Part shown: piece by piece, positions 36,669-40,629 of the stretch
How positions within the stretch are numbered: the stretch's first letter is position 1
Layout of the letters: every line of letters starts with the position of its first letter
NCBI GenBank assembly: GCA_965215605.1
Contig: OZ244070.1
Span: 1,632,001-1,696,000, forward strand
Length of the DNA: 64,000 nucleotides
Origin: an uncultured Candidatus Binatia bacterium
Lineage (GTDB): Bacteria; Desulfobacterota; Binatia; UBA9968; JAJDTQ01
Reading direction: 5' to 3'
Notes under the pieces: generated by a model
What the model saw: the letters and a program-made list of their open reading frames with translations, nothing else
What the model was told of the DNA's origin: nothing
The model's database searches: none
Made by a program: the position numbers and the translations under genes

Positions 36669-37769
36669 TTAAGCCGCGGGCTTCGTGTACACGCCGGAAT
36701 CCATTCTCGACTCGGCCCCAAGCTTGGTCATATCAGCCTCGAACATCTCGCGGATGTACTTCGGCTGGTCGTAGTACTCGATCTGGTTCCCGCCGGACTT
36801 CACGTCCTTGTCGACCTTGGAGATGTCTCCGTAGCCCTCGCCCATGCTGTGCTTGATGCCGCCGAAACGCAACGGCAGGTAGCGCGCGCCGCTGGGGCCG
36901 AGGTTGAAGTGCTGGTGGAACATCATCTCCGGCGGCACGAACACGCTGCCGTCCTGCCAGTCGTAGCGCTTGGGCTCCTCGCCTTCCCACCAGAACAGCG
37001 AGAAACCCTGCCCTTTGATGATGATGACGTTGAAACCGGGCCCGTGGCGGTGGGCCTTCTTGTAGGTCCCTACGGGGAACTCCGAGATGTGCGCCGCCAT
37101 GGTGCCGTCGCACATTTCCAGGAAGACGTTCTTGCCGCCCGCGCCCCGCTCCTTCCACTCCTGGAGGTTGAAGGTGCGCGTGTCGGCGATGAAGTTGGTC
37201 TCCCAGATGCGGCCGGGATGCTGCGTGCCCTGGCTGGAGAAATAGTCCGGCCGCCCGTCGAAGCGGTCCGCGAAGTCGTAGGGCGTGTTGAAGATGAAGT
37301 CGTCGTTGTGGAACAGGCTGAAGACGATGGGCATGTTGTTGACGGAGAACAGCCGCGCCGGCTTGTCACCCTGGCCGTTGAAGTGCTGGTGATGTACGTT
37401 CAACGGGACCGAAATGAGGCTCCCTTCCTGCCACTCGAAGGTCTGCTTGGCGCCCTTGTCGTTCCAGATGGTGGTGGCGCCGCGGCCCTGCACCACCAGA
37501 ATCAGCTCTTCGTAGAGATGGCGCATGGGGTTCAGGCTCTTCCCCGGCGCGATCTCGACGATGTAGGCGCCGGTGGCGTCGCCCGCTCCCTCCATGTTGA
37601 AGAGGGTCCCGTCACCGCCCATGCGGTCCCACCACTTGAGCGGCACCTCCTTCAGGTCCTTGATGAAGAATGTCTCGACGACCGGGATTCCTTCGTCCTT
37701 CTGCCACTTGTAGAAGAAGGGGATGTTGTCCATCGTGGTGGTTTCAGTCTCTTGTGCCGGCTTGGCCAT
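36669..37769 (-). CDS. Bicupin domain protein
   Basis: Two cupin motifs (HLYEE...PLNVHHQHFN; KAHRHGPG...PPEMMFHQHFN). Confidence 0.85.
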   Translation of the reverse strand: MAKPAQETETTTMDNIPFFYKWQKDEGIPVVETFFIKDLKEVPLKWWDRMGGDGTLFNMEGAGDATGAYIVEIAPGKSLNPMRHLYEELILVVQGRGATTIWNDKGAKQTFEWQEGSLISVPLNVHHQHFNGQGDKPARLFSVNNMPIVFSLFHNDDFIFNTPYDFADRFDGRPDYFSSQGTQHPGRIWETNFIADTRTFNLQEWKERGAGGKNVFLEMCDGTMAAHISEFPVGTYKKAHRHGPGFNVIIIKGQGFSLFWWEGEEPKRYDWQDGSVFVPPEMMFHQHFNLGPSGARYLPLRFGGIKHSMGEGYGDISKVDKDVKSGGNQIEYYDQPKYIREMFEADMTKLGAESRMDSGVYTKPAA

Positions 37770-37902
37770 GTGCTCCTCCGAATCTTCCAGTAAAATTCAA
37801 GAGCTATCTCTTACATGAGGCGTTTTGAAAATACAAGAACCGTCTGGGCGCCATGCCCCTGCGAGCAAATGCCTGCGGTCACGGACCGTCTTGACATACA
37901 GC

Positions 37903-37932
37903 AATTACTAATTTACCTATAAATTAGTAATT
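37903..37932. repeat. AT-rich palindrome upstream of fic (site L)
   Basis: AATTACTAATTT-ACCTAT-AAATTAGTAATT. Confidence 0.9.
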
Positions 37933-37947
37933 TTGCTGGAATCGCCC

Positions 37948-39291
37948 ATGAAGATCCCACAAACCCCGCCCAGCCTCACGGAGATACTCGCGAACCTGAA
38001 GGAGCCCGACCAGATCAGGCGGATGACCGAGATACTCGCAGGCCAGGGAATCAGCCCCTCACAGGGGAAGAAGTACCGGCATTGGGAAAACCTCCGTCGC
38101 GTCCAGTCCCCGACCGGACTCTCGTCCGAAGAATGGTGGGCGGCCGTGAAATTCGCCCGCCGCCAGACACGCAGGACCATTCCTCTGAAGGACAAGGACG
38201 GGAACGCCTTCGGCTACTGCCTCGCGGACCCCGTGCTCGAATCCCTGTATGAAATCGACCGGAACGTAAGCGGGAGAATCACGGCAACCGACCAGCTCCT
38301 GAATCCACAAACCCGGGACCGTTATGTCATGAGTTCCCTGATCGAGGAGGCCATCACTTCGAGCCAACTCGAAGGGGCCTCCACAACGCGCGACGCGGCA
38401 AAGCAAATGATTCGCTCCGGCCGAAATCCCATGAATCGAAGCGAGAGGATGATCCTCAACAACTACCGGGCGATCCAACGGGTCAAGGAACTCACCGCCC
38501 AGCCCCTCACCCCTGAGATCGTTTTCACGATCCACGAGACGCTGATCGATGGAACCCTCGGGGAAGACCAGACCGGCAACCATCTGCGGATACCGGGTGA
38601 CGGCGTCGCCGTCTATTACGACGGGGATGGAACCCTGCTCCATACTCCCCCGCCCGCGCGAGAGATCGCCCGTCGCATGGCCGCCATGTGTGAGTTCGCG
38701 AACAAGAAGCAGACGGACACCTTTCTGCACCCGATCCTCAAAGCGATTATCCTCCATTTCTGGCTTGCCTACGACCACCCCTTCGTCGACGGCAACGGCA
38801 GGACCGCAAGAGCACTGTTCTATTGGTCCGCACTCTCACAGGATTTCTGGATGTTCGAGTTTCTTTCGATTTCCGCCGTCATTCGGAGATCGCCCACCCG
38901 GTATGCCAAGTCTTTCCTCTACACCGAGACCGACGAGAACGATCTGACCTACTTTCTCTTGGCTCAGCTTCAAGTCATCCGGCAGGCCATCAAGGCCTTG
39001 TACACATACCTCGACAAGAAAGCGCGGGAGATTCAAAGCATCGAGAAGATTCTTCAATCCCAAATCTCGATCAACCACCGGCAACTGGCGCTACTCGGGC
39101 ATGCCCTGCGCCACCCGGGGGCGCGCTACACGATAGACACGCACAAAAAGACCCACAGAGTCACGTACCAGACGGCTCGGACCGACCTTCTCGATCTTTT
39201 CTCGCGGAACCTGCTCGTCAGGACGAAGACCGGGCAGTATTTCACCTTCACCGCGCCCTCTGACTTGGCGAAGCGGCTGACGGTCCTGTGA
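37948..39291 (+). CDS. Fic family AMPylase (class II) with C-terminal wHTH-like domain
   Basis: HPFVDGNGRTAR catalytic motif; N-terminal inhibitory SSQLEG; C-terminal NHRQLALL...TYQTARTDLLDL helix pattern; start moved to ATG at 37948. Confidence 0.92.
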   Translation: MKIPQTPPSLTEILANLKEPDQIRRMTEILAGQGISPSQGKKYRHWENLRRVQSPTGLSSEEWWAAVKFARRQTRRTIPLKDKDGNAFGYCLADPVLESLYEIDRNVSGRITATDQLLNPQTRDRYVMSSLIEEAITSSQLEGASTTRDAAKQMIRSGRNPMNRSERMILNNYRAIQRVKELTAQPLTPEIVFTIHETLIDGTLGEDQTGNHLRIPGDGVAVYYDGDGTLLHTPPPAREIARRMAAMCEFANKKQTDTFLHPILKAIILHFWLAYDHPFVDGNGRTARALFYWSALSQDFWMFEFLSISAVIRRSPTRYAKSFLYTETDENDLTYFLLAQLQVIRQAIKALYTYLDKKAREIQSIEKILQSQISINHRQLALLGHALRHPGARYTIDTHKKTHRVTYQTARTDLLDLFSRNLLVRTKTGQYFTFTAPSDLAKRLTVL

Positions 39292-39293
39292 TC

Positions 39294-39323
39294 AATTACT
39301 AATTTATAAACAGATTAGTAATT
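39294..39323. repeat. AT-rich palindrome downstream of fic (site R)
   Basis: AATTACTAATTT-ATAAAC-AGATTAGTAATT, 2 nt after the fic stop. Confidence 0.9.
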
Positions 39324-39364
39324 GATTGGTATGTTGTGGGACACGCTGTCCGACACACCCTTGT

Positions 39365-39394
39365 TTGACACCCTGGATCACGCTTCCCTATAGT
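39365..39394 (+). promoter_or_regulatory. Putative sigma70 promoter of the M24/ThrC-like/LLM operon
   Basis: TTGACA-N18-TATAGT. Confidence 0.7.
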
Positions 39395-39441: not shown

Positions 39442-40629
39442 ATGTGGATCAACGAACCGCGGGCCAACCGCGTGCTGGCCGAGCGGGACCTCGACGGCCT
39501 GATGGCCGCCACCAACATTCCCAACGTCTTCTACCTGAGCGGGGTGTGGCGCCGGCAGGACATTGCCGCCGTCGTCACCCGGGACGCAGTCACGGCGCCC
39601 TGGCTGGTGATTCCCCGGGGCGAGGTGGACTACATGGTGGACACGGTGCCGCCCGCGGGGGTGGCCACCTACGGCACCTTCCACCGTGTCATGGAGGACA
39701 ACGGGCCGCTCACCCCTCGTGAGGAACGCATCCGCGAGATCGGCATCGACCTGGAGCCGGTGAAGGACTTCTTCGAGGGCCTCGTCCGCACGCTGGAGAA
39801 CGCCGGCCTCGACCGGAGCCGGCTCGGCTACGACGAACGGGGCCTGGACCCGGCGCTGGCCCAGCGGTTGAAGGAGCGGCTGCCGCATCTGGAGCTGGTG
39901 CCGGCCATGTCGGCGTTCCGGGAGATCCGCATGGTCAAGAGCGCCGCCGAGATCGAGCGCATGACCGAGGCGGTGCGGGTCACCGAGGAGTCCATCTACG
40001 AGGCCGCCCACGAGGCCCGGGAGGGCATGGCCGAGGCGGAGATGTGCATGGCCTTCGACCTGGGACAGGTGCGGCGCGGCGCCGAGCCCAACATGAACCA
40101 CGTGGGCTTCGGCCGGAGCGCCGCCCTGGGCATGACCAATGTGCCGGAAGACACGCTCAAGGTAGGCGACATGATCCGTTTCGACGTGGGATGCCTCTAC
40201 AAGGGCTACCTCACGGACATGTCGCGCACCTTTTTCTTCGGCTCGCCGGACAAGAAATTCTCCAGTTATTACAATGCCATACTTAAAGGCCAAGATCTGG
40301 CCCTAAGCCTCATCAAGCCGGGCAAGATCGCCTCGGAGATCTTCAACGACACGGTAGCCGAGGTACGCGAGACCGGCATCCCCCACTACGGCCGCCAACA
40401 TGTGGGACACGGCATCGGCCTGGGCCTCGGCGGCTACGACCGCCCCACCATCTCCCCCGGCGACGACACGCCGCTGGAGGCCGGCATGGTGCTGTGCATC
40501 GAGACCCCCTACTACGAGATGGGCTGGGGCAGCGTCCAGGTGGAAGACATGATCGTGGTGACCGAAGACGGCTACCGGCGGCTCACCTCGTCGCCTCGGC
40601 ACCTCCAGGTACTGGAGCCGCGTACCTGA
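39442..40629 (+). CDS. M24 family (Xaa-Pro peptidase/creatinase-like) hydrolase
   Basis: DVG...YLTDMSRT, HVGHGIGL, IETP, VEDM. Confidence 0.9.
   Translation: MWINEPRANRVLAERDLDGLMAATNIPNVFYLSGVWRRQDIAAVVTRDAVTAPWLVIPRGEVDYMVDTVPPAGVATYGTFHRVMEDNGPLTPREERIREIGIDLEPVKDFFEGLVRTLENAGLDRSRLGYDERGLDPALAQRLKERLPHLELVPAMSAFREIRMVKSAAEIERMTEAVRVTEESIYEAAHEAREGMAEAEMCMAFDLGQVRRGAEPNMNHVGFGRSAALGMTNVPEDTLKVGDMIRFDVGCLYKGYLTDMSRTFFFGSPDKKFSSYYNAILKGQDLALSLIKPGKIASEIFNDTVAEVRETGIPHYGRQHVGHGIGLGLGGYDRPTISPGDDTPLEAGMVLCIETPYYEMGWGSVQVEDMIVVTEDGYRRLTSSPRHLQVLEPRT

Follow-up and report, generated by a model that had tools for sequence, protein, structure and literature searches.

Paired palindromes around a fic gene in a Candidatus Binatia bacterium are probable operators for the DNA-binding tail of the Fic protein

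The DNA analysed here, referred to throughout as the window, is a stretch of 64,000 nucleotides from an uncultured Candidatus Binatia bacterium (GenBank assembly GCA_965215605.1, contig OZ244070.1, positions 1,632,001 to 1,696,000). It carries a fic gene (37948..39291, plus strand) whose product is a 447-residue class II Fic AMP-transferase-like protein with the architecture of SoFic and CccR, an assignment based on the Pfam Fic and PADLOC SoFic models, an AlphaFold2 (AF2) model and fold matches. We place the start of the gene at ATG 37948 and not at TTG 37933, as given in the list of open reading frames (ORFs), because the homologues align from M1. The gene is bracketed by two palindromes, neither of which has a strand. 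The left palindrome, L (37903..37932), reads AATTACTAATTT-ACCTAT-AAATTAGTAATT, contains the core TACTAA (37906-37911), N12, TTAGTA (37924-37929), and ends 15 nt before the ATG. The right palindrome, R, reads AATTACTAATTT-ATAAAC-AGATTAGTAATT (39294-39323), has the same core at 39297-39302 and 39315-39320, again with N12 in between, and begins 2 nt past the fic TGA (39289-39291). Exactly 11 bp past the right arm of R lies a third half-site, TTGGTA (39326-39331), with which the operator-like element spans 39294..39331. The arms of L and R are identical at 23 of 24 positions, and their centres are 1391 bp apart with the whole fic gene in between.

An earlier reading of the same DNA from its letters alone, which we call the original prediction, had reported these coordinates and sequences, the arm match and the differing 6-bp spacers, together with a TTGACA at 37891; all were confirmed on re-reading the window, the hexamer spanning 37891-37896. 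The 12-nt arm, which that prediction took as the unit, is present in the window, but what the relatives conserve is shorter, namely two 6-bp half-sites, TACTAA and TTAGTA, separated by N12 or, in the majority of relatives, by N11. Near-identical full 12-nt arms are peculiar to the window's genome; in the relatives L and R have the core alone in common. A 20-letter pattern describing L and R had two matches in the window, where 100 shuffles yielded none, and across the genome (4,057,781 bases) it matched L and R only, with no match for a control pattern. Chance is therefore excluded as the origin of the pair. The exact core ACTAAT-N9/10-ATTAGT likewise occurs twice in this genome of 65.8% G+C. 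When one mismatch per arm was allowed, the genome gave 12 matches, compared with 13 and 15 for two control patterns, so that there is no detectable sign of a wider regulon. Of these relaxed matches, four are copies of another repeat, 22 nt long, which reads ACTA[AG]T[AG]TCCTGTCCG[AG]TTA[AG]T and has a conserved G+C-rich centre; they lie outside the window (G000:C1:823434, 1591796, 2216290 and 3383738, where G000 is the window's own genome).

The original prediction had described the protein as a class II Fic enzyme with a wHTH-like (winged helix-turn-helix-like) tail, and this proved right. The active-site motif HPFVDGNGRTAR (H277-R288; 38776..38811, plus strand) conforms to the catalytic consensus HxFx(D/E)GNGRxxR, and H277, P278, F279, D281, G282, N283, G284, R285 and R288 are invariant in 48 homologues. 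The inhibitory-helix motif S138-S-Q-L-E142-G143, of the class II form (S/T)xxxE(G/N) (38359..38376, plus strand), is invariant in the same homologues at S138, S139, Q140, L141, E142 and G143, and sits within helix 120-141 of the AF2 model, on the same chain and N-terminal to the Fic motif. The model, made with the 48-sequence alignment, has a mean pLDDT (predicted local distance difference test) of 86.4. Its C-terminus forms the canonical wHTH expected of this type of Fic protein (39076..39252, plus strand, from the AF2 secondary structure), with helices at 377-388, 396-403 and 407-419 and strands at 424-428 and 431-435. The recognition helix H3, residues 407-419, is encoded at 39166-39204 on the plus strand, the codons of Y407 and Q408 occupying 39166-39171.

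A Pfam scan of the protein returned the Fic domain alone (E 4.3e-20). The PADLOC SoFic model PDLC03963, a model without a curated cut-off, matched residues 97-435 (E 1.1e-39, 134.8 bits), and the NCBIfam SoFic equivalog NF046030 scored 53.5 bits against a cut-off of 550; we therefore regard the protein as a relative of SoFic and not as its orthologue. The top folds in the PDB were CbFic2 (8cil), SoFic (3zcn/3eqx), 4rgl, 7cb8 and 7xux, with Foldseek aligning about 355-372 columns to 8cil, 3zcn, 3eqx and 7xux. The N-terminal ~95 residues (37948-38232) were unmatched in sequence alignments to SoFic, CccR and CbFic2. This extension, residues 1-95, is conserved across phyla, with Y43, P55 and R71 invariant and W64 and K68 nearly so in the 48 homologues; it has no match to a Pfam family, and in the AF2 model it consists of helices and a beta hairpin at 75-91. 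A class I toxin-antitoxin arrangement, as in FicTA or VbhTA, was considered and rejected, the inhibitory motif being on the Fic chain and no conserved small neighbour being found across 71 loci. We also compared four sequencing runs with the locus; these consist of contigs, which are uninformative on starts, ends, strand and level, as are the parts that they leave uncovered. Contigs of an RNA library from a relative, with about 4-13% of letters differing, cover parts of fic and are no proof of transcription.

We compared the locus across the genus in 28 genomes, the window's own included, at 19 fic loci (labelled L003-L021; genomes other than G000 are labelled G with a number, and higher L numbers include loci from other phyla). 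The fic gene is present in 20 of the 28 genomes. Both flanks are largely kept: the same cupin gene flanks fic in 17 of the 19 loci, and a gene for an M24 peptidase lies directly downstream in 13. An L-type palindrome is found 39-55 nt before the ATG in all 19, each preceded by TTGACA, and an R-type palindrome 4-91 nt past the stop in 15, the loci lacking it being L012, L014, L016 and L020. Conservation at L is limited to the half-sites: identity to the window is 34-80% in the DNA immediately preceding L and 47-76% in the L segment, compared with 85-97% in the cupin and M24 genes. Exact TACTAA-N11/12-TTAGTA gave 28 distinct sites across the 28 genomes, compared with three for the reversed control pattern. 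By their coordinates, 27 of these sites adjoin fic or, in G019, a fic pseudogene, and the remaining one, in G043, has a 26-nt remnant of fic next to it. No such site occurs in the genomes G004, G010, G011, G013 and G023, which are without fic. Two checks that the original prediction had proposed thus came out in favour of a tie to fic: a search for further pairs of such sites placed all 28 exact sites at the fic locus, and the flanks of homologous fic genes carried L-type sites in 19/19 and R-type sites in 15/19 cases.

Several observations concern the evolution of the locus within the genus. Protein identity to the window's copies ranges over 69-94% for fic, 86-97% for the cupin protein and 85-95% for the M24 protein, and the fic allele groups are discordant with the similarity of the flanks (L003-L021). 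The fast divergence of fic suggests allele exchange or diversifying selection, with crossovers that would have fallen in the conserved flanks and not in the palindromes. G021 has two near-identical cupin-fic-M24 loci on separate contigs (C1:2762446-2763783 and C8:20105-21442); this genome is listed with 9% contamination, and the double locus may be an assembly or binning duplicate. At L012 / L034 (G020) the order is cupin, M24, fic, with the M24 gene upstream; there the L-type site is imperfect (ACTAAT...ATTAGC) and an R-type site was not found.

Outside the genus the same sites accompany fic over a wide phylogenetic range. A word-indexed protein search gave at least 8000 matches at E up to 1e-10, among which full-length matches of 56-60% identity were named from other phyla. 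For the comparison of loci we took the best 80 of at least 577 matching stretches in species-representative genomes; leaving out L056, L081, L100 and L122, where the match is without the N-terminus, gave 76 loci, 70 of them outside Binatia. We counted exact palindromes of the form T-xyz-AA, N10-12 and complement, a strict rule with no mismatch. The 250 nt upstream of fic at the 70 loci held 75 palindromes in 17.2 kb (4.35 per kb), compared with 4 in 279.6 kb of far flanks (0.014 per kb) and 1 in 94 kb inside genes (0.011 per kb), an enrichment of about 300-fold just upstream of fic. At least one upstream palindrome was present in 54/70 loci and two or more in 21/70, mostly 45-49 bp apart, and in several of the latter the -35 hexamer lies, by eye, between both sites. 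The spacer is N11 almost everywhere, N12 being found in the window's closest clade. Among the 75 N11 sites an extra TTAGTA (at most one mismatch) occurs exactly 11 bp to the right in 26, and an extra TACTAA 11 bp to the left in 15. Instead of the bracketing layout, most other phyla have a pair of operators around the -35, spaced about 47-49 bp apart. Downstream operators recur at L058 (Sumerlaeia), L062 and L092 (Chloroflexi) and L056 (Bacteroidota), that of L058 sitting between fic and a convergent 787-aa ORF. A search of the neighbourhoods for a shared partner gene, antitoxin or regulator, found none: the largest family of flanking ORFs occurs in 6/71 loci, in one planctomycete clade. As no flanking family exceeds this number, fic is the only gene that always accompanies the sites. 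At four verrucomicrobial and planctomycete loci (L063, L068, L071 and L121) the gene right after fic has, by eye, a common N-terminal sequence; it may encode a type I restriction enzyme subunit, which this sequence resembles.

The letters of the half-site change with the residues that open the recognition helix. We assembled 91 non-identical proteins and assigned an operator class to each, which was possible for all except 15. Proteins with YQ at positions 407-408, as in the window, had TTAGTA at 57 loci and TTGGTA at one, with seven left without a call. With YA the half-site was TTGATA in 3/3 called cases, and each of the two uncalled loci also has two TTGATA half-sites; with YD it was TTGGTA in 4/4, the one uncalled locus (L098) having TCGGTA by eye. 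The NQ proteins had TTAGGA (2/2, none uncalled), PQ had TTAGCA and YN had TTGAGA (one each, with one uncalled each), and YE was associated with TTAGTA five times and TTGGTA once, with two uncalled. For TQ (L102) the calling rule assigned the wrong class, the half-site being TTAGCT by eye, and no class was called for the single HE protein. In a scan of all alignment columns against operator class, Q408 ranked first (adjusted mutual information, AMI, 0.502) and Y407 second (0.472), the next column reaching 0.363, and both residues open helix 3 of the confidently modelled wHTH. On a quick maximum-likelihood tree the variant classes fall in separate clades, for example L087 vs L088, L085 vs L108 and L072 vs L094. 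Six independent contrasts across supported branches gave a mean of 5.5 site changes in the same way and 0 in the opposite way (sign test, median p 0.03). Within the genus, L019 has E in place of Q; its L shows ATTGGT in a single arm and its R shows ACCAAT/ATTGGT in the two arms, a shift towards TTGGTA at both sites, so that L and R change together. Residues 407 and 408 are thus a candidate two-residue recognition code for the letters of the half-site.

The paired palindromes are in all likelihood functional. Given that they are conserved in the genus, exclusive to fic, carried along with it across phyla and covarying with its own recognition helix, and that CccR and SoFic provide a precedent, L and R are quite probably docking sites for the wHTH tail of the Fic protein itself, through which it would control its own gene. 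The original prediction had put forward binding of the Fic wHTH to both sites as one of two inferences, and it is the one that gains support here, by the pattern of sites and residues and by analogy. That the Fic protein physically binds L and R we infer, along with the sign of regulation, the function of R, the stoichiometry, and the dimer and its helix spacing. A Fic dimer would bind an inverted pair of 6-bp half-sites, and further copies would add on one face of the DNA; such a dimer with stacked copies is suggested by the further half-sites phased 11 bp away. Occupation of L, which is placed after the conserved TTGACA and ahead of the start codon, would switch fic transcription off. L should therefore serve negative autoregulation, and this would keep down the amount of an enzyme that may be toxic, as has been shown for CccR. 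R would be a second operator of Fic; it could cooperate with L through a 1.39-kb loop, gate the promoter of the next operon or block read-through from fic.

CccR (YPK_0951) of Yersinia pseudotuberculosis is the closest parallel for an operator of this kind. It is a class II Fic protein that carries its inhibitory helix at the N-terminus and an HTH at the C-terminus. Binding as a dimer to a palindrome, it represses its own promoter, and the footprint, AGATAATCAT-N26-ATGATAATCT, is close to the -35 and -10 there (PMC9755527). Its repression needs dimerisation and its toxicity does not, the regulatory and AMPylating activities being separable (PMC9755527). The likeness to our protein thus extends from the class II Fic domain and C-terminal HTH to the binding of a palindrome at the own promoter, which parallels the predicted role of L. 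The differences are several. CccR has 380 residues, whereas the fic product has 447 with an extra N-terminal part, and the N26 pair of the CccR footprint contrasts with TACTAA-N12-TTAGTA and its extra half-sites phased at 11 bp. CccR is a type VI secretion system effector encoded beside effector-immunity genes and, in the accessible part of its report, is described with a single palindrome pair at the promoter, whereas the fic gene here stands between metabolic genes and has a second operator past the gene. The structural likeness is distant (7xux_B at rank 11, 19% identity), if 7xux is CccR, as we guess from its release date.

Two further relatives were compared. SoFic (SO_4266) from Shewanella oneidensis is reported to AMPylate EF-Tu and, as a dimer, to bind the 100 bp that directly precede its gene (bioRxiv 10.64898/2026.07.09.737422), and in E. 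coli SoFic is described as a defence protein that works by abortive infection and has a small antitoxin downstream (PMC12249575). It has the Fic and C-terminal wHTH architecture in common with our protein and is among the best fold matches, but sequence identity is about 20% and, in the accessible text, its operator is narrowed to the 100-bp fragment only. As only 150 nt separate fic from the M24 gene, there is no AS1-like small gene past fic here. CbFic2 of Coxiella burnetii (8cil), the best PDB match to the fic product by sequence and by fold, is a Fic-HTH dimer with DNA-responsive activity and, as a secreted effector, has histone H3 as its target; the assays used randomised double-stranded DNA (a random 20-mer and other lengths), and part of its DNA binding was called unspecific, the accessible part of the report describing no operator for it (PMC10628234).

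Several points weigh against L and R being operators of the Fic protein. A consensus scan for promoters found no canonical -10 at 16-18 nt past the TTGACA beside L, so that the assignment of this hexamer as the likely fic -35 (37891..37896, plus strand; upstream of the L-type palindrome in 19/19 genus loci) is an inference, and repression through occlusion of the promoter an assumption. R persists in G043 and G011, where this query found no fic, which fits a recent deletion and also fits another factor. The half-sites are spaced 17-18 bp centre to centre compared with 36 bp in CccR, and the geometry of the CccR dimer is therefore not simply transferable. Under the strict rule an exact upstream palindrome is absent from 16/70 of the non-Binatia loci. 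The recognition code has exceptions in L090 (YQ with TTGGTA), in the 5 to 1 split of YE between TTAGTA and TTGGTA and in the mis-called L102; 15/91 proteins are without a callable site class, and the sign test comprises only six contrasts on a quick tree.

The other inference of the original prediction was a mobile one-gene cassette, in which L and R would be dif/pdif or lox-type sites at which an unlinked tyrosine recombinase inserts and excises fic. The 12-6-12 layout with its differing 6-bp centres does resemble cassette recombination sites, and pdif/Xer-dif modules likewise have short inverted arms around a 6-bp centre and two sites bracketing a single gene. Other features that a cassette would share are the patchy presence of fic in the genus, its G+C content below that of the flanks and its divergence, much faster than theirs. 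The fic-less loci, however, are not products of recombination between L and R. In G011 the cupin-M24 gap is 290 bp and holds the fic -35 followed directly by the ~80-nt post-stop spacer and a partly decayed R; recombination of L with R would have removed this spacer. The deletion in G043 begins immediately upstream of the -35, ends 26 nt short of the fic stop and keeps the 3' end of fic and an intact R with R's own spacer, G013 has no palindrome, its M24 promoter abutting the cupin leader, and G019 retains L ahead of an internally deleted fic. No hybrid palindrome, which the original prediction would have expected at an empty site between the cupin and M24 genes, was found at G011, G043 or G013, with deletion ends in G011 and G043 falling outside L and R. 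Xer sites have distinct arms for XerC and XerD. The fic sites differ in having symmetric arms, conserved only at 6-bp half-sites that covary with a DNA-binding helix, and whereas pdif modules comprise several sites per replicon with varied cargo, and an empty or hybrid site where the module is absent, here there is one pair per genome, with no other cargo between such sites in the own genome or the 28 genus genomes. Outside Binatia, most phyla have both operators on the upstream side of fic. Within the genus, the elevated divergence sets in before L and extends past R, and no sharp break in identity at L and R was found in the genus alignments. The absence of a nearby recombinase, as the original prediction had stated, was borne out by Pfam among 20 ORFs scanned within ~12 kb, which gave no integrase or transposase match, 8/20 being without any match; and, as a weaker point, the contig joints listed from the four runs include none that skips from L to R. 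That L and R are the ends of a mobile cassette is on this evidence largely refuted, and we consider it scarcely credible.

Two alternatives retain functional sites and give them to something other than Fic-DNA binding. The palindromes could be operators of a different, unlinked DNA-binding protein that has fic merely in its regulon, which would account for R being kept in G043 and G011; but this would require a regulator that occurs in over ten phyla and works at fic alone, no gene is common to the neighbourhoods, the 28 genomes hold no further sites, and the letters of the site change together with Fic's own residues 407 and 408, the two highest-ranking columns. We consider this very unlikely. 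They could also function in the fic mRNA, as hairpins of its 5' and 3' untranslated regions that act on stability, translation or termination, and not as DNA sites. Each palindrome could form a 12-bp A-U-rich stem, and R lies directly past the stop, where a scan of the plus strand found no intrinsic terminator. Hairpins leave unexplained the direct half-site repeats at 11 bp (26/75 to the right, 15/75 to the left), a feature of the DNA helix; in other phyla one upstream site, by eye, abuts or overlaps the TTGACA hexamer and would thus be outside the transcript; no T-run follows R; and covariation with protein residues would not be expected of them. The hairpin explanation seems to us highly improbable.

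If L and R are operators of Fic, the role of R can be read in two ways. It may act locally, the level of Fic tuning or insulating the M24-peptidase operon with no loop between L and R. In the genus R always precedes the TTGACA of the next gene, whichever gene that is: at L013, L015 and L018, where another gene follows fic (substrate-binding-protein-like by eye), the third half-site of R abuts the TTGACA of that gene. This speaks for local control of the neighbour. The window's R, which the original prediction had placed about 40 bp before the -35 of the next operon, does end 41 bp before the promoter-like site of the M24 operon (TTGACA-18-TATAGT, 39365..39394, plus strand; 11/12 matches in a consensus scan). 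This site is conserved in L003-L009, L011 and L017, and also in the fic-less G013 and G043; as G013 carries the promoter without R and without fic, R is not required for its existence. R is missing in 4/19 genus loci, and the downstream operator of L058 sits between convergent genes, where no promoter would be expected. The downstream operators of L058, L062, L092 and L056 favour a role tied to fic, either bridging to L or a block on transcription. A purely local role for R is possible, if somewhat doubtful.

Operators at a distance are familiar from the lac O1/O2 and gal OE/OI pairs, in which a promoter operator works with a distant second operator for the same repressor, within or beyond the gene. 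A bridge between L and R would resemble these in having a distant auxiliary operator, with the two sites 1391 bp apart and a whole gene spanned, the loop being hypothetical. In its fullest form this idea has Fic bridging L and R with the whole 1.39-kb gene looped, its release also setting the adjoining metabolic operon, and residues 407/408 forming a re-programmable code read at half-site positions 3 to 5; we regard this combination as rather unlikely, and put it forward as speculation. If the loop were true, fic would be a self-clamping toxin or defence gene, and the bracketing layout a selected architecture.

The surroundings of fic are metabolic and do not form a defence island. The conserved left flank is the divergent cupin gene (36669..37769, minus strand; Pfam Cupin_2), and the conserved right flank, across a gap of only 150 nt, is the M24 peptidase or creatinase-like gene (39442..40629, plus strand; Pfam Peptidase_M24 and Creatinase_N). 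After the M24 gene come genes for a PALP enzyme and a luciferase-like protein, and further out those for DAHP synthase, ThiD and a TRAP transporter. In the genus genomes G004-G023 each genome gave 4 to 11 matches to the cupin protein, at 38-58% identity, and so this protein belongs to a large paralogous family.

It is a recent insight that Fic enzymes bearing a DNA-binding tail are toxins or defence proteins and double as transcription factors. Self-binding Fic-HTH regulators are a kind described since 2022, and in the literature that we found a base-level operator is given for CccR only, in the accessible part of its report (PMC9755527). Our searches, with subscription journals outside their coverage, found no account of a TACTAA/TTAGTA operator or of an operator downstream of a fic gene. 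What is new here is the operator motif of a large cross-phylum subfamily, the candidate two-residue recognition code and the second operator past the gene. For genome scans the locus holds a caution, in that paired palindromes bracketing a gene need not be recombination sites. For the family, it provides a precise predicted operator for a subfamily with at least 577 matching stretches in species-representative genomes, natural cases of a second operator that would have left the promoter for the opposite end of the gene, and a putative two-residue code that could be tested with a few point mutants.

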